Source: a virus
Taxonomy: Duplodnaviria > Caudoviricetes
Strand: one strand, 5' to 3'
Virus record (IMG/VR): IMGVR_UViG_3300010352_000625
Coordinates: 64,001-128,000 of that record
Length of the DNA stretch: 64,000 bases
The notes beneath the pieces are model-generated. The model was given only the letters and a program-made list of their open reading frames with translations. It was not told the DNA's origin and made no database searches. A program made the position numbers and the translations under genes. Every line of letters starts with the position of its first letter. Position 1 is the first letter of the stretch. Of this stretch, positions 3,053 to 49,611 are shown in pieces.

Positions 3053-5002
3053 TTAATCTGTTATATCTTCACTCGGTATTTTCCAACTATATTTGTTATT
3101 GTAATTTATAATATTTATCAATTGATAGGTGCCATTTTCATATATAATACCAACACCTTGAACCCATGAACTTAATCCAATATTATAAGATAATCTTAAT
3201 TTAGAGCTAGTTCCAACAGATACAGCACCTTTAAGAATTTTTGGTTGATGAGTATGTGCTGACATAGATTTCTTATAAGCTTTTCTATATGTAGTTAGAC
3301 TACCCTTAGCTCCGTTTGCACCTCTATGACCATGCTGACTTATTTCAACTCCATGAAAATTAAAATCTTCATTAGGTTCTAACCATTTTGTTTTATCTTT
3401 ATTTTTAAAACTAGTTTGGTTTTCAATCATATAACGTAAAGGTAAAATTTCTCCATCAATCATAGATTTAACAATATCTAATGAATATCTAAGATTTACT
3501 TTATCAAAAGCATATCTACCTTCTTCTAGATAATTATCTAAATGTGAATGATGATTAGAATCAACTATTATCATTTGCCCATCAATAGCATCAGCAAAAT
3601 AATCCAATAAATTAGCAACCATTTCAGATTCAGATTCTAATGAGATATTATTGGATGCCGCTTTTCTAGCTAGTGTTACTGTTTTGTTTTTATCGTGATG
3701 AGTTATAGATATTGCTGAAAACACATCATGTAAAACTAAATTATTAATACCTATAACATCAATCATATCATGTTCAATAGACAAAACTTCTTCATCGTGT
3801 TCACCAAAATGACTATCTCCTACTACCATAACACTATTTTTAGCTTTACTAATAGAACCATCTGGTTTATATATAATTCCTAAATCAATAATTTCCCCAT
3901 CACTGCCCATTTGTACTTGTCTAAAATGAAACACTTTATCATTTTCAATCTCAACTATAATTCCGCCTAATACATGTTCATACTCAGCAATTTTGTTTAA
4001 TCTCTGAGACATATATAAATCATTAGAATAATCGTTCTCAGTTATTGCACCTGTGGTCATTATAGCATTAGGAATACAATTATTACTATTAGCTACAAAA
4101 TCTAAATCCTGTTTAGGACTAGCAATAATAACATTACCATCTTGTGTTAATTGAGGTAGACCAGTTTGTGGGTTTATTTGTTTAGCTGATACTTTAATAT
4201 CAGAAATATATATACTATCGTTTAAATAAGTATCTTTATATATTATATAAAAATCATCTTGTTTTAATTCAGGTGATAGTTGCCAACTAAAGGCTGATTT
4301 TCTATTAATAACATCTTCACACGGTAAAACAAGACATATAGAATCAGTTTCATTCATATATGTTTTTATCGAATTTAACAGATTTTTATTTACCTTTTTA
4401 CCTGATACTGCTGTTGTTATAAAATATTTTCTTTTACTATTAATAGCTTCTAGTGTATTTTTTCGATATTCATCATTAAAAGTTTCTTCGTTAAGAATAT
4501 ATTTATCCATATCATCATATTTTCTAGCACAAGCTATATATAACTCTGTTTCAGTGTTAAAATATTTATCTGCTCTAAATGATAATATATTATTTAATAC
4601 TGAAAATTTAGGTATATAATTATGTTTTTTAATATATTTATATAGAGAATCAATACATTCTTCTATTTTTAATTCGTCTTTAATTTTAGAATCTAAATAA
4701 GATTGTTCGTTTTTCTCTTGTTCAATTCTAATTCTATCTAATTTAGTTATTTCACCATCAGCTGAAAACAATGAGTCCAAAAAAGTACTTGGTTTAGCTT
4801 GATTGTCTATAAATAATTCCCACCTATTTTTATCTATTGAATTAATAGTATTTGGATAATCTTTTAATATTGTAGTATGTTTCCTATATTCTTCTCGACA
4901 AAAATCACGTCTAGGATAATTATTATTTTTTCTCCAATTTTGAAATATATTAATAAATTCTTCAAATGTCATATCTAAAATTAATTCACCTTTCTTAATC
5001 AA
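3053..5002 (-). CDS. T5 A1-like metallophosphoesterase / DNase
   Basis: Motifs YFITTA, INPQTGL, TTGAIT, FHFRQV, GDSH, HD, SNHH, HGHRGANGAKGS, AHTHQP and YNIGLSSW match the T5 A1 family pattern. Confidence 0.75.
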   Translation of the reverse strand: MIKKGELILDMTFEEFINIFQNWRKNNNYPRRDFCREEYRKHTTILKDYPNTINSIDKNRWELFIDNQAKPSTFLDSLFSADGEITKLDRIRIEQEKNEQSYLDSKIKDELKIEECIDSLYKYIKKHNYIPKFSVLNNILSFRADKYFNTETELYIACARKYDDMDKYILNEETFNDEYRKNTLEAINSKRKYFITTAVSGKKVNKNLLNSIKTYMNETDSICLVLPCEDVINRKSAFSWQLSPELKQDDFYIIYKDTYLNDSIYISDIKVSAKQINPQTGLPQLTQDGNVIIASPKQDLDFVANSNNCIPNAIMTTGAITENDYSNDLYMSQRLNKIAEYEHVLGGIIVEIENDKVFHFRQVQMGSDGEIIDLGIIYKPDGSISKAKNSVMVVGDSHFGEHDEEVLSIEHDMIDVIGINNLVLHDVFSAISITHHDKNKTVTLARKAASNNISLESESEMVANLLDYFADAIDGQMIIVDSNHHSHLDNYLEEGRYAFDKVNLRYSLDIVKSMIDGEILPLRYMIENQTSFKNKDKTKWLEPNEDFNFHGVEISQHGHRGANGAKGSLTTYRKAYKKSMSAHTHQPKILKGAVSVGTSSKLRLSYNIGLSSWVQGVGIIYENGTYQLINIINYNNKYSWKIPSEDITD

Positions 5003-6804: not shown

Positions 6805-6975
6805 CTATTTTCCCTTATCTTTATTTATCAGAACATCTTTTCTGAGTTTGCAATAGTCAACCCAATCTTTTAATGTTATGATTAATCCAAAACCTTCATA
6901 TGTTTTTTTATTAACTATCATAATAGATAGTGATACTAACATTATAGCTATTCTTAATCGTATATTATCTAACAT
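6805..6975 (-). CDS. Small hypothetical protein (56 aa, hydrophobic N-terminus)
   Basis: MLDNIRLRIAIMLVSLSIMIV...KGK*. SD AGGGGT upstream; fills the gap between the gp47-like and gp46-like genes. Confidence 0.55.
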   Translation of the reverse strand: MLDNIRLRIAIMLVSLSIMIVNKKTYEGFGLIITLKDWVDYCKLRKDVLINKDKGK

Positions 6976-6989
6976 AATTTCATACCCCT

Positions 6990-8132
6990 TTAATCATGAT
7001 AATTAAATATTTTAAGTATATCTACAGCATTTTGTTTGTTAATCGGTTCTTTAAATTGCAAAGCATAATCTACTAATTTTTCTTTTGTGATTAAATTGTT
7101 GTTAATCATCGATTCAAATTCTTTAAATGCATCCGATGATATATTAGATGATTTTAATCCGGAATCATCAATCATAGACTTTTGAAAATTAACTGATTTA
7201 AAGAAATGTTTTAATTTTGATATATCTCTAGTCTCTTGACTATTACTATATATGTACTGTATTTTAGTTTTACTTAATTTTTCTTCAGAACTTTCGGTGC
7301 AATAATCAGAAAAAATATCAAAATTTCTAAATACTTTATAAATGTAAGTGTGTGGATTGTCAATATATCTCATTGACATATCATCAAAATCCATCATATA
7401 AATACCTTTATTTTCCCCAGTATTTCTAAAGTCAACATTTCTACAACTACCAATATATTTAACTAATTTATCTCTAACTTTAATCTCTTGTGGGTCGTGA
7501 ATATGACCTAACAATACTAAATCATATTTATATTTGTCAATCAATTCTTCTGGTGTTGGAATATTTTCTGATACATCACAACCATCTTTAACTATCATAT
7601 TGTAACCGTGCTTTGTATCAAAATGACCCATAGCTATTCTAGTTGTACCAATCGCAAACTTATTTTTTATACTATCTAAACTTTCAATTATATTAGTTGA
7701 ATATGGAATAAAAGCAATTTCAATATTTGTATTATCTAAATGAACTACGGCTGGTTTGTCAAATACCATAACATTAGGATAATAACTGAACATTGATAAT
7801 AACGAACTTCTTATATTTAATGTAGAATCACCTATTTTAATATTATTAGCTTTATTATCAACATCATCATGATTACCTAAAATAAATATTAAACTAGTTT
7901 CAAGCGACATGTCATATATTATTTTAGATATAATAGAAATAACAGGAGTAGTAATACTATAAGGTGAATCAAATATATCACCAAAAAATATAGTATAATC
8001 TGGCTTTTCTATTTCTATTGTATTTTTAATTAAACTAAAAGTATTAAAAATCTCTTGAAATGTATCACTATTTGAAATTGAACTTTTACTGTTTGGTATA
8101 TGTAAATCTCCAACTAATAAAGATTTTGACAT
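6990..8132 (-). CDS. Mre11/SbcD-like nuclease (T4 gp47-like)
   Basis: GDLH, GDIFD, GNHD and GHIH motifs; adjacent to the Rad50-like gene. Confidence 0.93.
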   Translation of the reverse strand: MSKSLLVGDLHIPNSKSSISNSDTFQEIFNTFSLIKNTIEIEKPDYTIFFGDIFDSPYSITTPVISIISKIIYDMSLETSLIFILGNHDDVDNKANNIKIGDSTLNIRSSLLSMFSYYPNVMVFDKPAVVHLDNTNIEIAFIPYSTNIIESLDSIKNKFAIGTTRIAMGHFDTKHGYNMIVKDGCDVSENIPTPEELIDKYKYDLVLLGHIHDPQEIKVRDKLVKYIGSCRNVDFRNTGENKGIYMMDFDDMSMRYIDNPHTYIYKVFRNFDIFSDYCTESSEEKLSKTKIQYIYSNSQETRDISKLKHFFKSVNFQKSMIDDSGLKSSNISSDAFKEFESMINNNLITKEKLVDYALQFKEPINKQNAVDILKIFNYHD

Positions 8133-8135
8133 TAA

Positions 8136-9215
8136 TTATCCACCTTTAGATCGTAAACTTAGCAAACCAATATTTATTCTTTTCTCTAACTGCATAAACA
8201 CTAAAGATGATTTACTATTTTTATTTAATATTTTTTGATACTCAATATTATCCACATTATCCTTGTATCTTTCTAACTTTAACATTTTTATAAATTCTTT
8301 TCTATTAAATTTTACATTATTTTTTATACTTCGTTTAATAGCATTTTGAATATTATAAATATAAGGCGTTTCAATCATCGATAAATCTATCATTGATTGA
8401 TTAGTTTTAATTATTTTCTTATTCTCTATAAATGTTTGCTGACAATTAATAAGAAATTTTAATTCCTTTTTATCTAATTCTACATCTTCATTATTGATTA
8501 GTTCTGTAATCATATCAATTAATGTTTCAATATTATCAGGGATTAAAATATCTTCATAATATTGATATATAATATTAAAAAGTTTGCTCACTTTTCCCCA
8601 ACCTAAATTTTGAACTCCTTTAATATTATCTGAAATGTCACCTGTAATAGACTTTGCTAAAGCATAATTTTTTGAATTAAAATATTTTTCATCAAATTTC
8701 TTATATTTAACATACCAATTATTAATGTTAATATCATTTTTATACCAATCATATATATCAACATTTTTATCTAACAATTGAATAAAATCTGAATCAGAAC
8801 TAGCAATAGTAATATGAATTTTATTATCCAATTTCTTAATGTAATCAGCAAGACAATATATAATTGTATCTGCTTCAGTATCTTTAATGTCAATGAAAGG
8901 AAAAGGTAGTGTCAACATCATATTTTTAATATACTCAACATAACTCTTTTCTTTTTCTTCATCTGTCATCGATTTACTTCTTTTTCTATTAGCTTTATAT
9001 GTACCTGAAGATAAAGCTATAGCTCTTTTGTTTCGACCATTATCAGAACAAATAAATACAACATCAGGTTTTAGTATATTAATAGTATCACATATTTTAT
9101 TGAGTATATTAAATGTTAGTTTATCTATCAATTCACCTTCGCTATATTTAGTTATGTCATATGCGTAGGTATATCTTTTTACTATATTAAAAAAATCTAA
9201 TATTAGAACTTTCAC
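8136..9215 (-). CDS. 5'-3' exonuclease / T4 RNase H-like flap nuclease
   Basis: YKANR, EADTII, SSDSDFIQL and GDISDNIKGV (H3TH) motifs. Confidence 0.93.
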   Translation of the reverse strand: MKVLILDFFNIVKRYTYAYDITKYSEGELIDKLTFNILNKICDTINILKPDVVFICSDNGRNKRAIALSSGTYKANRKRSKSMTDEEKEKSYVEYIKNMMLTLPFPFIDIKDTEADTIIYCLADYIKKLDNKIHITIASSDSDFIQLLDKNVDIYDWYKNDININNWYVKYKKFDEKYFNSKNYALAKSITGDISDNIKGVQNLGWGKVSKLFNIIYQYYEDILIPDNIETLIDMITELINNEDVELDKKELKFLINCQQTFIENKKIIKTNQSMIDLSMIETPYIYNIQNAIKRSIKNNVKFNRKEFIKMLKLERYKDNVDNIEYQKILNKNSKSSLVFMQLEKRINIGLLSLRSKGG

Positions 9216-9289
9216 ACAATTAACTCCTTAGAATAATCTATACTAATTAACTTGTATCATTAGTATAGATTATCACTTAATAATATAGA

Positions 9290-10093
9290 TTAATCTTTCT
9301 GAGCGGGTACACTTATTGTTGCTGTTATACCTTCTTTTTCAGAAGCAATTGTAAATGATACTACTGGATTACTGATAAGAGTACTAATATCGTAATCTTT
9401 AAACTTCAAAAGTCTACTCATAACATCAACTAAATTATAATCATATTTAGCATCAATCTTTATTTTATCGACTAATATTGGTGTAAATGTATATTCAAAA
9501 TTATTTTTGATATAATCTTCTGAATACACAACTAATCTATCTTTATTAGTTTTAATATTAAATCTCAAATCTTCTGTTTTGTTTGGTGTGAGAATGTTTG
9601 AGCTATCAATAAAATCTTTCATTTCATCTTTATCTAAATCAAGTATAAAAAAACCATCATTTTTAAGACCGATATTATTACTAATTACTGCCTCATACAT
9701 ATCTACATTAGTTTCTGGGAGTTCATATATATCCTTTTCAAGTAACTGATATAATTGAATAGACATTTTTTTATTTTTTGTTTGTATTAATATTCTAGTT
9801 TTATTAATTTGAATCGAATCATATATAGGATTAAACAATGTACTCAGTACTGCTCTATTTGTTTGCAATCTGATAATCATCATTGAAGATGTTTCTAATT
9901 CTTTAATGTCATCTAATTGTACCCTACCATAAAAAGAAACATCACCGTTAATATCAGTAGAATCTATTCTAGCAAAACAATTATTATTTTCATCTTTCCC
10001 TATTTTAAGAGGAACATGGGTAAAGGTATCTGGTATAATACTAAAAAACTTTTTCAATCTGTTAATGTTTGTGTTGGTAATAGTTATATTCAT
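9290..10093 (-). CDS. Probable sliding clamp (gp45/PCNA-like)
   Basis: 267 aa, directly downstream of the clamp loader, with a beta-rich PCNA-like pattern. Largely a positional call. Confidence 0.6.
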   Translation of the reverse strand: MNITITNTNINRLKKFFSIIPDTFTHVPLKIGKDENNNCFARIDSTDINGDVSFYGRVQLDDIKELETSSMMIIRLQTNRAVLSTLFNPIYDSIQINKTRILIQTKNKKMSIQLYQLLEKDIYELPETNVDMYEAVISNNIGLKNDGFFILDLDKDEMKDFIDSSNILTPNKTEDLRFNIKTNKDRLVVYSEDYIKNNFEYTFTPILVDKIKIDAKYDYNLVDVMSRLLKFKDYDISTLISNPVVSFTIASEKEGITATISVPAQKD

Positions 10094-10113
10094 ATATTTT
10101 CATTTCTCCTTTA

Positions 10114-11058
10114 TTATTTCAATATATCTTTAATGTTAAATATACAACTCAAAAAGACAAGATCCCGGTCAAACACAATTTTATTTTTGTAAGCATGTTC
10201 CGCAATTACTATTACTGCATCAGAACTATTATATTTTTCAACACAATAATCTTTCATTGCAATATAAATATCTTCATCAAACACCATCTTCTTAGTTAAT
10301 TCAGATATTTTTTTAACATCTTTGGTACTAAATACAGCATCGAAAAATTTGTCATACTTTTCATTATTACTACTATTGATTAAATCAGCTTTTAAAACAT
10401 CAGAACATTTTGAATTCTTCTGAGTTTCATTGATAATTTTTCTGATATCTGGGGAATAATTCTTGATTACAACAGCAATATAATCATCATCAAATTTTAT
10501 ATTTTCATTATCTAAAATATTAACTAACAATTCAGCTATATCAAGAGAATCTGGTATCAATTCAAATTCAGCACATCTTGATCTAATAGGAGTAATTATT
10601 TTATTGATGTAATTACAGGTCAAAATAAATCTACAATTATCAGAAGCAGTTTCCATAAGTTCTCTCAAAGAATCTTGTGCTACTGGTAAAAGACCATCGG
10701 CTTCATTAAGAATTATAATTTTCTTCTTATTCATGAATGAGGCAGTATTAGCAAAGTTCTGTACCTTATCACGAATAGTGTCAATACCTCTTTCTTCGGA
10801 AGCGTTAATTGTTAAATAATTGCAATCCATATTATTTACAATTACATTTACAATACTATTCTTACCAGTACCAGCTCTGCCGTACAGCAACATATTTGGA
10901 ATGTCGCATTTCTCAATACAATCAGAAATAAATTTCTTTATTTCAGCACTACATATCAAACTTTCTACACTTTTAGGTCTATACTTTTCAACCCATAAAG
11001 AATGTAAAGCATTACTAATTTCTACAGATGTGGAATTAATCTCTTTTATTTTAGCCAT
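10114..11058 (-). CDS. Clamp loader AAA+ subunit (gp44 / RFC small subunit)
   Basis: LWVEKYRP, GRAGTGKN, INASEERGID, NEAD and SRC motifs. Confidence 0.96.
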   Translation of the reverse strand: MAKIKEINSTSVEISNALHSLWVEKYRPKSVESLICSAEIKKFISDCIEKCDIPNMLLYGRAGTGKNSIVNVIVNNMDCNYLTINASEERGIDTIRDKVQNFANTASFMNKKKIIILNEADGLLPVAQDSLRELMETASDNCRFILTCNYINKIITPIRSRCAEFELIPDSLDIAELLVNILDNENIKFDDDYIAVVIKNYSPDIRKIINETQKNSKCSDVLKADLINSSNNEKYDKFFDAVFSTKDVKKISELTKKMVFDEDIYIAMKDYCVEKYNSSDAVIVIAEHAYKNKIVFDRDLVFLSCIFNIKDILK

Positions 11059-11095
11059 TTAAATACTCCTTCATTTAATATTTCAAGTTTAGTTA

Positions 11096-11124
11096 ATTAT
11101 ATCATATATATTACTATTTGTCAA
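11096..11124 (-). promoter_or_regulatory. Consensus SigA/sigma70 promoter for the replication/recombination operon
   Basis: TTGACA-aatagtaatatatatga(17)-TATAAT, extended -10 TG. Confidence 0.9.
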
Positions 11125-11129
11125 CAGAT

Positions 11130-11159
11130 AAAAAAAAAGAGGACCTAACTAGTCCTCTT
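11130..11159 (-). terminator. Rho-independent terminator
   Basis: AAGAGGAC/GTCCTCTT stem followed by a long T-run on the minus strand. Confidence 0.85.
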
Positions 11160-11434
11160 AGCATGATGATTATATTTAAATATATTTAACATCGAGTGAA
11201 ACGAAGATGCATGATGCGAAGCATCATCTTAGCTAATCGGAATGTATTGACCCACTCTCTTAAACTCAACTTTTTTTATCTTATTTCTATAACAATCATA
11301 TTATAGAATCTTTATTTTCAAATCTTTTAATTATATCTAAAAGATCTAACTGATCTTTAATTTACCTTTTTTTATAAATTTCGGTGAACAATCTATGAAC
11401 AAAAGTAATCAAAATTGGGTCCCTAGACTCATTT

Positions 11435-12346
11435 TTATTTAAATAATTCACTGAATAATCTTGAATTCTTATTATCCCAGAGATAGTCTAATCTTATAAA
11501 TATAGCCTCATTACTAAACCATAATTCTCTTTGTTTGTTTATTGGTATACTGTAACTTTCTATAAATTCTATTCTAAACTCATTTTTTTCAGGGTTGAGA
11601 ATATCATCTAAACATGATATAATAGTTTCAGTATCATTATATACACTTCTGATTATATATTCAAATATATTAGCATTATACATATCAGCGTGAAAATACT
11701 CTATTAAATCATTTACTTTGTTTTCAGTAAGTTTTTTAATATTAGATTCAGTTTTAACTATATATCGATAAACTTCTTTGTTATCTTCATATTTAAATAT
11801 ATAGTCATGAACATCAGCTAGAGTATCATTGATAATAGAAAAGAATTTAGATATATCAATATTAAAATATAACATTCTTTCTATATCGGAATGTTCTGTA
11901 AAGGATCTCCACATATCCCATCTAGGGCATATACCTAATTTAGTCCCATTAATTGGTAATACTAGATTTACAACATCACTCCAGTGTGATGCATATTCAT
12001 AAGAACTTGTACAGATAAAACTTTGATTTCTTTTGGGATAGTGTTTCCAACTGTTTAAAATATTAGATAATAAACGATTATAGTAATTATACGAATTATT
12101 CAGCGATATTCTAATTCCAGGTTTTCTATTGACAATATTATCATCAATAATATCACCTCTAAAAATAAAATAACCTTTCTTAGCTCTATCAAAGGCTTCT
12201 GAATAGTCTGTATTTAAAAAATTTATTAATTCAATATCATCTAAAGATATATCAACAATATTGTAATCTTTTAACGTATCACTTATTAAAGCTTCATTAT
12301 CTATAATAGAATTGTATTGAACATCAAGTTCATCATAGTTTAACAT
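11435..12346 (-). CDS. Hypothetical protein, possible ADP-ribosyltransferase-like fold
   Basis: FIFRG...NYYN...W.HYPKR.QSFICTSS...A...LGICP..DMW pattern. The R-G and S-x-(C)TS motifs recall R-S-E ARTs. Confidence 0.45.
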   Translation of the reverse strand: MLNYDELDVQYNSIIDNEALISDTLKDYNIVDISLDDIELINFLNTDYSEAFDRAKKGYFIFRGDIIDDNIVNRKPGIRISLNNSYNYYNRLLSNILNSWKHYPKRNQSFICTSSYEYASHWSDVVNLVLPINGTKLGICPRWDMWRSFTEHSDIERMLYFNIDISKFFSIINDTLADVHDYIFKYEDNKEVYRYIVKTESNIKKLTENKVNDLIEYFHADMYNANIFEYIIRSVYNDTETIISCLDDILNPEKNEFRIEFIESYSIPINKQRELWFSNEAIFIRLDYLWDNKNSRLFSELFK

Positions 12347-34823: not shown

Positions 34824-36785
34824 ATGTCTTTAAATATAACAACAATGAAAACAAGACTTATTTGGAACGAATATCTACCTCATGCTGAGAGTTTAATATA
34901 TCCTTATATAAGTTTCGATAACGGAATATCTTGGATGGATATTAAAGATGAGGTTGATTATTTAAGAAATGTTGGAGAGAGACATCTAAATAATATATCA
35001 ACAAAAAATGGTATTACCGAAATGGATATATCTGTTGGTTTTACTCCTTATTCAATACCAACAATAGAGAAATTAGAATATGTTATGGCTGGTGATGGAG
35101 TATCAACTGAAACTAATTTTATAAGTTCTACCGCAACAACTTATTATTTTGCGATAGGTGCTATAAATTATGATACTCCCGGATTATATAAAGCTGATGA
35201 AACTGAACATATAAGTTATTCCGGTCCTATTAATCCAGATACTAGTGTTCCTTATATGTCTAATGTTAAATCTATAGATATTCCTAATGATGGAAAATAT
35301 TATAATATTAATATTTATGTTAATTATCCTGAATTTGTTGAAGGATTAGCAATTTATTATGGATTAGCTAATACATCTTTAAATTTAATGTCTATTACAA
35401 ATTTACATCAAAAATTAGATGGTAGTCCTAGTTCTACTGTGATTACAGCAGGTGTTACAACATCTGTAGTTTTAGCAAATATTTTTCCATTTCCAACAGC
35501 TACAGGTACAGTAAAAATAGATAATGAATATTTAGAATATACTGCACAAGAATTTGATGGTACTAATTGGATACTAACATTAAATGCTCCTGCAACTGAA
35601 AACCATAGTGGTGAATCTACGGTTATATACTGTTTACCTGATGATACAAGACAAGTACCAGAAAAAATATACTTTTTTCCAAACACAAACAACATGATTG
35701 AATATATTAATTTTGATGCTAGTAATGTTATTGATTTGGTAGATCACTCTAGTGAAATGGATTATGTATCCCCATCAACCGTAGGAACAATAGAATATTC
35801 AACTTTCATGAGTAAATTTAGACAAAGTTATAAATTAGTTGGTAACACATGTATAAGAACAAATTTATCAGCTACTAATAGAAATGCAATTAAAGATACT
35901 GGCTCAATACATTTTTATTTAGCATTATCTTCTTTTGATGATAGTAATACAGACCCTTACATATTTGGAACTTATGATACAACAGGATTATATTGTAGAA
36001 TAAGTAAATTTAATTCTAAACCTTATTTAGGTTTTAGATTTGTTGAAGGTACTGAAATAGTTGATACTACTATATTTAGTTTTGAAGATTTTAGAATTCC
36101 TGTATTGAAAAAAAGTGAATTTAGTGATATAGGAATAGCATGGTCAAAAGACACTGATAATAATATGATATTCTATCTTGTAATTGATGGTATAACTAGT
36201 ATTCAAACTAAGACAACTATTTCATCTACAGATTTTGATTTAGGTGCAATAGATATAGGTGGTTTATATAATGGGTCAAGTGTTGTAAATAGCTTTGTAG
36301 GTTATTTAGATGATTGGAGAATATATAATAAGAATTTAGCTGACGGTAGTTATAATATTATGTTTGCTGATATAAACAAAAATCATTACCAAGATATTAA
36401 TAGATTTGCAGGTAAAATAAAATTAGGAACTGAATTTATTGATGTTGATGCAACATTAGCTAGCTATGATACAGCTTCAGCAATGAATTTATTATCTGAC
36501 GAAACTGCAAGTGGTGGAGATACATATTATACCCCTGCATTTTATACTAATGTTTCTTTACCTTATAGTGCTACATATGAAATCGATGAGCCTTTAGTTA
36601 AATATGATAATTGGGTAATATCTAGTTATATAGCAGGTGGTTGGACTAGTTTAGTTACTAATATTACATATCCAGTGAGACCGGAAACAATTAAAATTAA
36701 ATATGAATTATTAGATGATAATACTGGATTTTATACTCCTATTTTAGGCAATCCATCAGTAATAATCTCAGAAATGACAGTGTAG
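34824..36785 (+). CDS. Virion protein with LamG/ConA-like domain
   Basis: IGG...FVGYLDDWRIYNKNL. Confidence 0.75.
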   Translation: MSLNITTMKTRLIWNEYLPHAESLIYPYISFDNGISWMDIKDEVDYLRNVGERHLNNISTKNGITEMDISVGFTPYSIPTIEKLEYVMAGDGVSTETNFISSTATTYYFAIGAINYDTPGLYKADETEHISYSGPINPDTSVPYMSNVKSIDIPNDGKYYNINIYVNYPEFVEGLAIYYGLANTSLNLMSITNLHQKLDGSPSSTVITAGVTTSVVLANIFPFPTATGTVKIDNEYLEYTAQEFDGTNWILTLNAPATENHSGESTVIYCLPDDTRQVPEKIYFFPNTNNMIEYINFDASNVIDLVDHSSEMDYVSPSTVGTIEYSTFMSKFRQSYKLVGNTCIRTNLSATNRNAIKDTGSIHFYLALSSFDDSNTDPYIFGTYDTTGLYCRISKFNSKPYLGFRFVEGTEIVDTTIFSFEDFRIPVLKKSEFSDIGIAWSKDTDNNMIFYLVIDGITSIQTKTTISSTDFDLGAIDIGGLYNGSSVVNSFVGYLDDWRIYNKNLADGSYNIMFADINKNHYQDINRFAGKIKLGTEFIDVDATLASYDTASAMNLLSDETASGGDTYYTPAFYTNVSLPYSATYEIDEPLVKYDNWVISSYIAGGWTSLVTNITYPVRPETIKIKYELLDDNTGFYTPILGNPSVIISEMTV

Positions 36786-44300: not shown

Positions 44301-45686
44301 TTAATGGCTGATCAATTTAAACCAACCACGGATATTCCAGTTAAATTAATACAAAGTAGATACATGTATAATGAATTTAATATTATGTTATTTGCTGATA
44401 GATGGATTAGCGATGATGATTATTACTATTATACTATTAATAATACTAATATTACTAGTGATACTATTATAGACATATTACCTAGTATTAATATTTCTGA
44501 ATTTGCATTAAACAATTTAATAGAGTGTGGTGTTGAAGGTCATAGTCAAACCGAAGGTTCTTTTATTGTTAAATGTTATAAAACAAAACCAGTTGTTGAT
44601 GTTCCTATAAGAGTAATAACAAGAACATGGGTACCTGAAGAAATGATTTTACAAAATATAACTTTATTAGCTAGTAAATGGAATAATAATTTATATACTA
44701 TAGAATTAGATAATATTAAATCCACAGACACTATAGAAATGATTATAAACGAATCAATAACATATAAACAATATAATGCTATAATATCAGCTGATCTAAC
44801 TGGGTATTCTCAAACAGATGGGTCTTTTGTTATTAAAGCTAACGGAACAGTTCCGACTATTAATGTTTCAATTCTATTTTATATTAATTCAACAACATCT
44901 AAAATAACTAATATGACATTAGACAGAAATTATTGGTTGGGTGAATCAAAACCATTTAATTATAGACTAGAATTGGAAGATATGAATGATAATTTTGTTA
45001 ATATAATACCAGCTGATGATATTAATTCTGTTGAAATGAATATGTTACAAACTGTAGGAATACGTGATGGTGGAATATTTGGTATAGAATCTAGTGGTTG
45101 GGTAATATCATATATGCCGACAGATGAAGATTCTGATATATATTCTTTACATTTTGTAATGATGGATAAAAATAGAAATCTAGTAAAATTTAAATTAACT
45201 AATGACAATCATGATTATAATGAATGGAACAATTATACTATTACTTACAATAATGGAATATTTAACTCTTATGTAAATGGTATTCCTCAAAAAGTTGAAA
45301 ATTATAAGAATTATATAACAAGTAATAATATAGTTGTAGGAACAAATATTAGTTTAATAAATGATATAGATGTTGGAGTGCTAAGTGGTGAGTATTTCAT
45401 GAAAGAATTTAGAATATATCACGAAGTCTTAAATCATAATTATATACTAGAATTATATAATAGAGGAAACATGTTAAATTCGAACGGTGCTTTATATACT
45501 ACAGATGTAATAGAAGATAATGAAATTGTTGATATTTATAAAGAAGGATTAAAAGTTAAAACTATAACAGAATTAACTAACACAGACCCAGATTCAACGA
45601 TTGAAAAAGATATATTAATCAATTTAAATTATGGAATTGATAGTAATGAAGTATTATTAAAAGATGAAATATATGAAACTTTATAA
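41340..45686 (+). CDS. Large fibre/receptor-binding protein (beta-propellers, LamG domains, tandem fibre modules)
   Basis: W..I.W/Y and S.DG..W (BNR-like) repeats; LamG motifs GYVNDFILYN and MKEFRIYH. Confidence 0.8.
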   Translation: MTNLNYIDINYDATFTKIDDSTDLGTVSVNKTVYIDTLFEAPVNRDFYRYILDGNTLNYNKFGNDAYISNINTRDINANLVNSLSHFVINKNNYYFCNSDNKINAYTNTGTLYYTTENDYINIKSMILGVGNNIYVKYDTNKIDCLVVLANMLDINWTISNDDFGDYLASDDNYIYVNSISNKNQIYVINPRLVNEGDYIDRIITITGFSAEYDSNEHKTVKYIKCYNNYMFCLFGTDNDTRPSYICKIDLNDDSIIFNIIISDNYTIATSNLYTVNNTIYFAKHNILYKMDLDIVTDSQKIFNDNSNIIKIGKYNEEELYILTDNNRLVILKLNDNDNKIGNIIYNYNDSNDTDKILLDIELDNKNNSLYFIYNNSIENKFPSLIIDDNGLIGSPCYKLDGGGSYIEFESMPMSNKNFSTSISFKPTKINNNKSVLFGGSDNYNWKAICWSDYLNVFCSITENDNVTSIMPDDGSENWYTNDTRTLPVASWNSICWDNVHNLFYIVSNDNKFAYSSDGLNWSLLSNVPNDYEWNKVYFAEYINNIYVIQKNSNKLIYNMDVNGTWREITLPITSDWKDITYRNSDKLLLLVDGTNIIQNIKNHNVFNIITVGDTTHKWTNIIYNKYLNKFIAIGKNTNKIAYSSNGIIWEIKELPYIDVWVSLVYDPHILNKYLLFSENNDTYLISDDLINWTTITELDYYYNIKDVAVSNSRICVLLGDVDLTFYPTGGSDVVIDKKHCLSQKNIFNRNVTKSTFQLYFSEYDNFLYVLYGNYKFKCYFKLDSSKLDEWQIISAIVNNNNVKVYLGDKLISNHNITDDLDVYNYDINTDDKIYFIHNGNDTFYNIYTFRIGNSTFNNNDDKDLYGYVNDFILYNYSITEKEIDDISKVKVLHCRFNYDYTEPVYDNLIHDISCYKHNLTGNSDYITEEDSFKFDSNKSLTVANKNYNFNNDKFTLSFWYKNKTDINDIGSKILVSNYNTLDPYMMLMADQFKPTTDIPVKLIQSRYMYNEFNIMLFADRWISDDDYYYYTINNTNITSDTIIDILPSINISEFALNNLIECGVEGHSQTEGSFIVKCYKTKPVVDVPIRVITRTWVPEEMILQNITLLASKWNNNLYTIELDNIKSTDTIEMIINESITYKQYNAIISADLTGYSQTDGSFVIKANGTVPTINVSILFYINSTTSKITNMTLDRNYWLGESKPFNYRLELEDMNDNFVNIIPADDINSVEMNMLQTVGIRDGGIFGIESSGWVISYMPTDEDSDIYSLHFVMMDKNRNLVKFKLTNDNHDYNEWNNYTITYNNGIFNSYVNGIPQKVENYKNYITSNNIVVGTNISLINDIDVGVLSGEYFMKEFRIYHEVLNHNYILELYNRGNMLNSNGALYTTDVIEDNEIVDIYKEGLKVKTITELTNTDPDSTIEKDILINLNYGIDSNEVLLKDEIYETL

Positions 45687-48864: not shown

Positions 48865-49095
48865 TTACCATTCAGAATTTCTGTTGACTTCAACTAATTC
48901 TCTTATGGCCCATTTCAAATCTATTAAAGAATATTCTGTTATTGTTCTTTCGAACCCATCTCCCCATTTTAACACGACATGATAATTTTTATCATGCACT
49001 GAGTAATCGATACCCACAATATATTTATGGAATTTTTTCGGTATCTTTTGTAAAATTAAATTGTCAATAACTTTAATATCTTTCATTTTTTGCAC
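48865..49095 (-). CDS. Hypothetical protein
   Basis: ORF track; SD GAAGG. Confidence 0.65.
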   Translation of the reverse strand: MQKMKDIKVIDNLILQKIPKKFHKYIVGIDYSVHDKNYHVVLKWGDGFERTITEYSLIDLKWAIRELVEVNRNSEW

Positions 49096-49139
49096 CTTCT
49101 TATTTAAACTTATACTAATTATAAATTATATAAACTTAT

Positions 49140-49260
49140 TAAGTATAAGTTTAATTGTAGTGAACTAATTACAGCCTAAAGGATGTAATCTTCCTGCTTC
49201 AACGGCTACAAGGTTCATAGTCTCCACAGGCTTGAATTCCCTAGGTTCCCTAGGTATTTG
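49140..49260 (-). ncRNA. TnpB omegaRNA (reRNA)-like scaffold plus flanking guide
   Basis: ATACCTAGGGAACCTAGGGAATTCAAGCCTGTGGAGAC...CGTTGAAGCAGGAAG...TTTAGG...TAGTTCAC resembles the 3' ends of IS605 tnpB loci. Confidence 0.75.
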
Positions 49261-49323
49261 ATTTTTAATTATTTTAGTCATTCATATTACCACCTAAAGG
49301 CAGTAATCTTTCTGTCTATTGTA
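49160..49323 (-). mobile_element. Non-autonomous IS200/IS605-family miniature element (no tnpA or tnpB)
   Basis: Two same-orientation imperfect hairpins ATTAC..CCTAAAGG..GTAATCTT (49168-49192, 49286-49310). On the minus strand AAAG precedes the left hairpin with TTAC on the flank. GAAG precedes the right hairpin and the element ends in TCAC. Confidence 0.85.
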
Positions 49324-49350
49324 GTAAATGTTTTTACATTATTTCTATTT

Positions 49351-49611
49351 TTATCTAGCTTTAATTTCTTCTTCTGGTTCTTCAACTTCCGGTGCTTGAA
49401 CTTCTGGTGATGTTTCAGATTCTTCAGGTTTAACTTCTGTCAAATATCCTAACTTCATACCTAGTTCTATGGTAACTCTGTATTCACCTTGAAGTCTCTT
49501 TTGTTCATCTTTCCCTTCTTCTACTTGTTTTGTTATAGCATCAAACTTATTTTTAATATCATCAAGTTTCTTTAAAAATTCGTTTGGTATTGCATTATTT
49601 TCTGTTGTCAT
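49351..49611 (-). CDS. Hypothetical coiled-coil protein with acidic tail
   Basis: ORF track; SD AGGAG. Confidence 0.75.
   Translation of the reverse strand: MTTENNAIPNEFLKKLDDIKNKFDAITKQVEEGKDEQKRLQGEYRVTIELGMKLGYLTEVKPEESETSPEVQAPEVEEPEEEIKAR

Follow-up and report, generated by a model that had tools for sequence, protein, structure and literature searches.

A protein-free IS200/IS605-type mini-element with a TnpB-type omegaRNA-like scaffold shares a 207-kb phage genome with its tnpB parent element

The concept of the palindrome-associated transposable element (PATE) came first from haloarchaea. PATEs that encode omegaRNAs and are served in trans by the TnpB of another element have been described by Meers et al. 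(2023; 10.1101/2023.03.14.532601), together with a TAM/TEM logic through which an occupied site is protected (10.1101/2023.03.14.532601); the examples from Geobacillus stearothermophilus are protein-free and tnpB-derived, with paired subterminal palindromes and an omegaRNA scaffold. In the ISDra2 element of Deinococcus radiodurans the scaffold of the TnpB-omegaRNA complex extends over both the 3' end of tnpB and the transposon's right end, and the flank serves as the guide (PMC8612924, PMC10097598; PDB 8H1J, 8EXA); the functional scaffold of 116 nt overlaps C-terminal codons of TnpB that are dispensable, and the part 5' of it is trimmed by TnpB (PMC10097598). TnpB is reported to process its own transcript into the omegaRNA (PMC10278001). 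TldRs, nuclease-dead TnpB derivatives of prophages that work with a scaffold and a short guide, have lost RuvC residues, the C-terminal ZnF/RuvC part and the transposon ends, and are tied to fliC or oppF (10.1101/2023.11.30.569447).

The stretch of DNA analysed here (64,000 nt, referred to as the window) comprises bases 64001-128000 of a virus record of 206,669 bp with 26% G+C and a CheckV value of 100%. On its minus strand lies a 164-bp mini-element, copy A, at window positions 49160-49323, the length and both boundaries of which we re-verified on the sequence. A first-pass annotation of this DNA had given the element the same boundaries and length, and on re-reading these and all of the motifs that it listed proved right base for base. 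The parts of the element and its left target site are as follows.

49324-49328, minus strand: TTTAC, the target and transposon-adjacent motif (TAM; core TTAC), directly 5' of the left end, from the sequence and from the empty allele in contig L132
49312-49323, minus strand: left-end linker TACAATAGACAG, 12 nt, from the sequence
49308-49311, minus strand: left guide tetranucleotide AAAG, the same as the left guide of IS608 (PMC3201880)
49286-49307, minus strand: left subterminal imperfect palindrome, 22 nt, a TnpA-type DNA hairpin, from the sequence; 95% identical to the left end of the parent element
49240-49254, minus strand: stem 1, CCTAGG-GAA-CCTAGG, from the sequence, followed by about 45 nt before GAAG
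49190-49193, minus strand: right guide tetranucleotide GAAG, from the sequence
49168-49189, minus strand: right subterminal palindrome, 22 nt, from the sequence
49160-49167, minus strand: tail TAGT plus TCAC, ending in TAGTTCAC, after which the flank begins with TACAATTAAAC
49160-49163, minus strand: TCAC, right cleavage site or transposon-encoded motif; TAGTTCAC stands at every right end listed
49165-49281, minus strand: remnant open frame with an ATG, the last 38 tnpB codons (the tail after RuvC-III), equal to residues 385-422 of the parent TnpB (P0001)

An A/T-rich stretch separates the left palindrome from the CCTAGG-GAA-CCTAGG stem. The element sits in a 264-nt spacer between genes for proteins of 86 and 73 aa, and all three lie on the minus strand, in agreement with the co-orientation claimed in the first-pass annotation. 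There are no transposase or nuclease genes within the 164 bp, where the 38-codon tnpB tail alone is left; the statement that all coding sequence is gone is therefore nearly correct, with the exception of these last 38 codons, which are still open and retain an ATG (49281-49165). AGGTGG stands 8 nt upstream of this frame, and gene callers have annotated the frame as a 38-aa gene in two related contigs (L109, L110). The two subterminal imperfect palindromes lie on one strand and are related to each other, as is the case in PATEs. Copy A is almost certainly a protein-free IS200/IS605 derivative, a PATE, with an intact scaffold. A blastn search of the INPHARED phages with the mini-element returned no match.

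A pairing rule links the guide tetranucleotides of such elements to their cleavage sites, and in IS608 the right guide is GAAT. In copy A the pair GAAG/TCAC at the right mirrors AAAG/TTAC at the left, and the proposal that the ends are self-consistent stands. With IS608 of Helicobacter pylori (PMC3201880) copy A shares the TTAC left site, the AAAG directly 5' of the hairpin foot and a right cleavage tetranucleotide a few nucleotides 3' of the right hairpin, and the tnpA-then-tnpB order of IS608 is found in an autonomous relative of the family. It differs from IS608 in the right site and guide (TCAC with GAAG, against a TCAA site), in the spacings (16 and 8 nt, against 19 and 10), in the absence of tnpA and in the variability of the first 6-10 nt at the left. 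As in ISDra2, the scaffold overlaps the 3' part of tnpB and the right end, and the guide would be the flank; copy A keeps exactly the portion that is equivalent to the functional ISDra2 scaffold (PMC10097598). In contrast to ISDra2, which has TTGAT as its TAM, copy A has TTAC and a shorter scaffold of about 100 nt, and the TnpB of this phage, the similarity of which to the ISDra2 protein is distant (E about 1e-13 to 1e-15), carries Gln in place of the catalytic Glu.

The likeness to the G. stearothermophilus PATEs extends to all of the features named for them above. Unlike those PATEs (10.1101/2023.03.14.532601), copy A lies in a 207-kb phage and not in a bacterial chromosome, its genome encodes no TnpA, the RuvC-II motif of the partner TnpB is non-canonical, and occupied and empty alleles can be compared between co-occurring phages. 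Copy A is thus of a kind that is already described, namely PATEs with omegaRNAs that are used in trans, to which it adds a well-preserved phage member; what goes beyond the ordinary here is the resident partner with its non-canonical RuvC-II, the natural pairs of occupied and empty sites and an odd feature of the left end. The system also resembles TldRs in that a phage carries a TnpB-family protein together with a scaffold and a short guide (10.1101/2023.11.30.569447). The losses that define the TldR class are not seen here: the zinc finger, RuvC-I, RuvC-III and the transposon ends are intact, and the element is found at different sites in related phages.

Copy A is one of seven family copies in the 206,669-bp genome, A to G, all of which end in TAGTTCAC and the flanks of which differ copy by copy; its recurrence within the same genome places it far beyond chance. 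The first-pass annotation had proposed a search for further copies with different guides, and the six additional copies, each with its own flank, bear this out. A second proposal, to search the full phage for tnpA or tnpB with the same ends, led to a tnpB in copy C and to no Y1 TnpA. Copy B is a second full mini-element, at 148.7 kb in the genome, with 92% identity to copy A. Copy C is the parent, a full tnpB element at genome positions 179751-181140, with a single intact ORF for a TnpB of 422 aa (L014:514-1779; genome 179867-181132). This ORF spans the scaffold and the right hairpin and has its stop codon inside TGTAATTAG, and the scaffold overlaps the last 33 or so tnpB codons, which fall within the 38-codon tail kept by copy A.

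Relative to the parent, copy A has lost tnpB codons 1-384; its left end is 95% identical, and its last 129 nt, which include the 38 codons, the scaffold and the right end, are 96% identical, the right hairpin differing by one compensatory T-A to C-G change and one mismatch. Judged by these identities, copy A is an internal-deletion derivative of the tnpB element of the same genome (179751-181140). The cassette had been called an orphan. The term is wrong for this phage, since the gene for the partner nuclease lies 67 kb away, in a cognate tnpB element that is 96% identical over the shared part. Copies D, E, F and G are four shorter derivatives that form a decay series in one genome: D is without the left hairpin, E without one arm of stem 1, F is cut within the scaffold, and G consists of a single hybrid hairpin. 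Copies A, B, D, E and G have the same orientation as the genes around them.

The scaffold of copy A was delimited by model matching and by covariation within the family.

49160-49260, minus strand: omegaRNA-like scaffold, matched by covariance model R1 and supported by family covariation
49226-49230 and 49193-49197, minus strand: long-range stem CCTGT / GCAGG of the scaffold, from covariation
49218-49222 and 49204-49208, minus strand: short stem GACTA / TAGCC of the scaffold, from covariation

It further includes stem 1 (49240-49254), the right hairpin and the TAGTTCAC tail. Its placement, in the 3' part of tnpB, across the right end and up to the transposon boundary, is the one that characterizes an omegaRNA. 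Relatives of the TnpB protein at 35-73% identity were collected from viral and bacterial contigs, and each contributed its DNA between the RuvC-III motif and the right end; a single TnpB protein as query retrieved nothing from the viral contigs, whereas an alignment as query did retrieve relatives. The resulting alignment contains 48 non-redundant distant TnpB 3' ends, with the copies of this phage and the closest relative left out. RNAalifold on a plain MAFFT alignment produced two helices only; the structure was therefore set by hand and judged by pair counts. It consists of a 6-bp stem with a GRA loop, a long-range stem, an inner stem that closes a variable insert, and the right hairpin. 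Over the 48 sequences 85% of the cells pair, compared with 69% in shuffles, compensatory changes on both sides are seen in 19 of the 22 pairs, the covariation score was reached by none of 500 shuffles, and no slid register matches it.

A custom covariance model, R1, which was built from this alignment and to which the copies of this genome did not contribute, matches 49160-49260 with 81.2 bits (E 1.7e-19), and the match covers all of the model positions, 1-129. Copies B, C and D score 83-86 bits, copy E, which has lost one stem arm, 69 bits, and copies F and G match weakly. In the close subfamily 94.6% of the cells are still paired, and compensatory changes are present. The first three helices are superfluous for a DNA hairpin recognized by TnpA, and they point to an RNA. 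With Rfam 15, a search of the window at the gathering threshold gave nothing, and for the interval 48900-49600 no relevant match came up even at E values up to 10; Rfam may be without a model for this clade. The covariance-model check that had been suggested thus gave a split outcome, negative with Rfam and a full-length match with R1, and the latter upholds the original description of an omegaRNA-like scaffold in that copy A carries a complete scaffold of the TnpB type. Single-sequence folding of copy A, as RNA and as DNA, gave energies no better than those of shuffles, and the structural support is accordingly that of covariation and not of energy.

The parent TnpB contains the OrfB_IS605 (PF01385) and Cas12f1-like TNB (PF07282) domains, and its best solved relatives in the PDB are TnpB nucleases. 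The zinc finger is intact, as are Asp219 of RuvC-I and Asp373/375 of RuvC-III. In alignments, the catalytic RuvC-II Glu of ISDra2, which we take to be E278, and that of two other solved TnpBs correspond to Gln299. The motif around it, MQDE (residues 298-301), is invariant in 36 relatives and places Asp300-Glu301 directly after Gln299; in canonical TnpBs, Asp/Asn-Leu follows the catalytic Glu at this place. With this Gln at the position of the canonical Glu, the protein is to be regarded as a putative nuclease. Mobile TnpB clades with an altered RuvC-II motif are large, include viral members and have been read as rearranged and not dead (PMC10691335); from its motif, the clade of this TnpB probably belongs to these 'RuvC-II rearranged' branches.

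When contigs from anaerobic digesters were scanned for exact matches to the right end, the family was located in 13 metagenome and three viral contigs, at other insertion sites, and several of these copies are protein-free. TTAC stands 6-10 nt before a conserved AGACAGAAAG in most of the left junctions examined, the exceptions being L121, with TTAT, and L115, without TTAC. A sister mini-element is present in contig L131 and absent from L132, the flanks of which are 98.4% identical; the comparison reveals a clean insertion exactly after TTTAC, without target duplication. The TAM core TTAC that the first-pass annotation predicted fits this empty allele and adjoins most of the left ends examined. 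A full tnpB element in L139, 98.4% identical to the parent copy C, is flanked by genes with 92% identity to window 6878-11741. Its homologous site, on the plus strand of this phage at window 9245-9271, is unoccupied; TTGT stands there in place of TTAC, and three of the first 10 guide-matching positions differ from the L139 target. The site may be an allele that escapes recognition of TAM and seed, or just a product of divergence. This site lies in the loop of an intergenic hairpin, the stem of which covaries between the two phages.

These occupied and empty alleles in related phages indicate, from comparison of their sequences, that the family is recently mobile. Neither this phage nor two related viral records contain a match to PF01797 (Y1 TnpA), and for transposition to new TTAC sites the host would therefore have to provide such an enzyme. 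A Synergistaceae genome contains an autonomous relative (L137) that combines Y1 tnpA and tnpB with the same scaffold. In the Synergistales relatives left ends were not located by hairpin similarity, and alignment by hand suggests that these relatives use a different TAM. The empty site of copy A, which the first-pass annotation had proposed to find in related phages, did not come to light: the five contigs whose flanking genes are identical to its own each carry the insertion, in identical form, and exact scans for the right flank of copy A yielded nothing in viral and metagenome collections, from which near-identical records may have been withheld. A complete related phage of 89 kb (G001; IMGVR_UViG_3300034685_000230) carries a frameshifted, stop-ridden tnpB and further scaffold copies in the following regions.

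G001 9203-9555, 44789-44890 and 35137-35233: tnpB pseudogene and scaffold regions

One of these scaffold copies scores 92 bits, above any copy in the phage studied here. Scaffold copies next to a dead tnpB imply that scaffolds can persist while decaying.

From copy to copy, the left end differs in its first 6-10 nt. Copy A, L139 and L127 are three insertions in which the 6-8 nt that follow TTAC recur as the first 6-8 nt of the right flank. In copy A, TACAAT is found on both sides (left linker 49312-49323; right flank 49154-49159); in L139, ATCATTAA is found on both sides (2378-2392 and 3775-3782) and is present once in the unoccupied allele of this phage; and in L127, CTAATTA at the left end corresponds to CTAACTTA in the right flank. 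The empty junction of the L127 site was not found. Y1 transposition should not duplicate target sequence. The repeat of linker and flank could be the scar of a break repaired after TnpB cleavage, or a chance preference in the choice of target. In one sub-lineage the same linker is found at at least five TTAC sites, which is the expectation if the linker travels with the element.

The flank to the right of copy A contains two features that bear on its use as a guide.

49140-49159, minus strand: predicted guide, the first 16-20 nt of the right flank, beginning with TACAATTAAACTTATA, placed from TnpB biology
49104-49154, minus strand: inverted repeat of the flank, with a 16-bp stem, one bulge and an 18-nt loop, kept in five sister contigs and with one change in L115

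Exact matches to the predicted guide are confined to its own flank and to the same flank in sister contigs, where they stand beside TTCAC. For copy A, no TTAC-adjacent match with up to three mismatches was found in the phage or in the fetched loci, and for the guides of all copies no TTAC-adjacent target with up to two mismatches was found in the same set; the best TTAC-adjacent matches belong to copies B and C, each with 3 mismatches in 16. Because the TCAC or TTCAC at the right end differs from the TAM, the occupied site would not be a target. The inverted repeat starts at guide position 6, covers positions 6-20 and lies directly upstream of the ribosome-binding site of the next gene; in RNA, this hairpin would partly sequester the guide. 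A scan for promoters and terminators around copy A gave no signal above chance, the sole terminator-like match being stem 1 read on the wrong strand.

We propose that copy A is a PATE from an IS608-like element with tnpB only, and that it may serve as a guide in trans for the resident TnpB; taken as a whole, this explanation is probable. The deletion kept three modules, which are the left end (TTAC, AAAG and hairpin), a scaffold of about 100 nt that encodes the tail of TnpB, and the right end (GAAG, hairpin and TCAC). Copy A would be transcribed by read-through from the upstream co-oriented gene, and the TnpB of the parent copy would trim the 5' part and load the scaffold in trans. The complex would recognize TTTAC followed by TACAATTAAACTTATA, a combination expected only in genomes without the insertion, such as those of an excised sister copy or a co-infecting relative, and repair of the break from the occupied allele would retain or spread the mini-element. 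That copy A in fact works as a trans guide for the phage TnpB is a plausible step of this scheme that we advance tentatively from the sequence. An extension of it, which we regard as unlikely, is a drive of one nuclease and many guides, in which the single TnpB would serve the parent and at least three mini-elements with intact scaffolds (A, B and D), each directed against the allele without an insertion that co-infecting relatives have at the respective site. Several loci would be copied into rival phages, or used to cut them, and the linker repeats of A, L139 and L127 would then be scars of homing and not of transposition by TnpA.

It is possible, if somewhat doubtful, that copy A is instead an inert relic, a recent deletion product that merely decays, the RNA of which is unused and for which passive mobilisation by TnpA is the only prospect. 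The decay series D, E, F and G in the same genome is what such a history would leave behind, as are the scaffold copies beside the tnpB pseudogene of G001, and copies that are 92-96% identical to the parent are young and may not yet have decayed; the lack of a promoter signal above chance and of a TnpA in the phage is likewise consistent with disuse. However, every copy with both hairpins keeps the whole scaffold (A, B, L121, L122, L125, L127 and L128/L131), and the copies that keep it have at least three different deletion junctions, although TnpA needs just the ends of about 45 nt. The 94.6% of intact pairs in the subfamily, with their compensatory changes, and the intact cognate tnpB in the same genome also argue against this reading.

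Two further readings concern the proteins. If the Gln-bearing TnpB bound DNA without cutting it, in the manner of TldRs, the dispersed guides could serve to silence host or rival-phage targets or to mark them; Gln299 at the position of the catalytic Glu of three solved TnpBs, the MQDE motif invariant in 36 relatives and the precedent of phage-encoded TldRs (10.1101/2023.11.30.569447) lend themselves to this reading, which we nevertheless judge improbable, given that Asp219, Asp373/375 and the zinc finger are intact, that the transposon ends are intact and the element recently mobile, unlike in domesticated TldRs, that clades with altered RuvC-II are read as rearranged and not dead (PMC10691335), and that no guide has a TTAC-adjacent match in the phage. 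The 38-codon frame (49281-49165) could alternatively encode a functional peptide. It is open in both A and B, is kept across two shorter junction variants (L122 and L128, with differences of 6 and 9 nt, the junctions having been read by eye) and was annotated by the gene callers in L109 and L110. Between A and B, however, the peptide differs at many positions and the RNA pairs are kept; the corresponding tail of TnpB is disordered and dispensable in ISDra2 (PMC10097598), and the AGGTGG upstream is merely the 3' arm of the left hairpin. This makes a small protein gene highly improbable, and the 38-aa remnant peptide, which is not conserved between A and B, is probably non-functional.

If the mini-elements are loaded by the phage TnpB, as in the explanation that we favor, the phage and its relatives from digesters would form a natural test bed with occupied and empty alleles at 92-98% flank identity. 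A 2026 review names the homing of transposons into co-infecting phages as a mode that is possible in theory, and such a test bed could probe the 'non-restorative homing' of TnpB transposons between co-infecting phages (review PMC13565253), which would be the RNA-guided counterpart of the T4 homing endonucleases. The system could also show whether a TnpB with a rearranged RuvC-II cuts DNA.

Several observations on individual copies stand beside these results. One insertion site (CTTAC ... CTAACTTAATATT) holds two different element variants in L116/L124 and in L127; one of the two is without its left hairpin, and compensatory changes distinguish its stem 1. In L115 (positions 184-230 of a contig from ENA ERZ27239131) the right junction and flank are those of copy A, and the element consists of a single hairpin with a left linker of the B type; the DNA upstream is unrelated and contains no TTAC. 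The arrangement of this contig suggests recombination or deletion between element copies. Copy D (genome 145813-145931; L004:1501-1619, minus strand; outside the window) follows a TTAC in an apparent tRNA-His gene, at the junction of T-stem and acceptor, where ARAGORN calls no tRNA-His; the guide predicted for this copy would match the uninterrupted allele of the tRNA-His gene. The right flank of copy F (genome 152400-152440) has a near-identical, element-free paralogue 2.4 kb away, at 154785-154825, which is the upstream region of a paralogous minus-strand gene outside the window.
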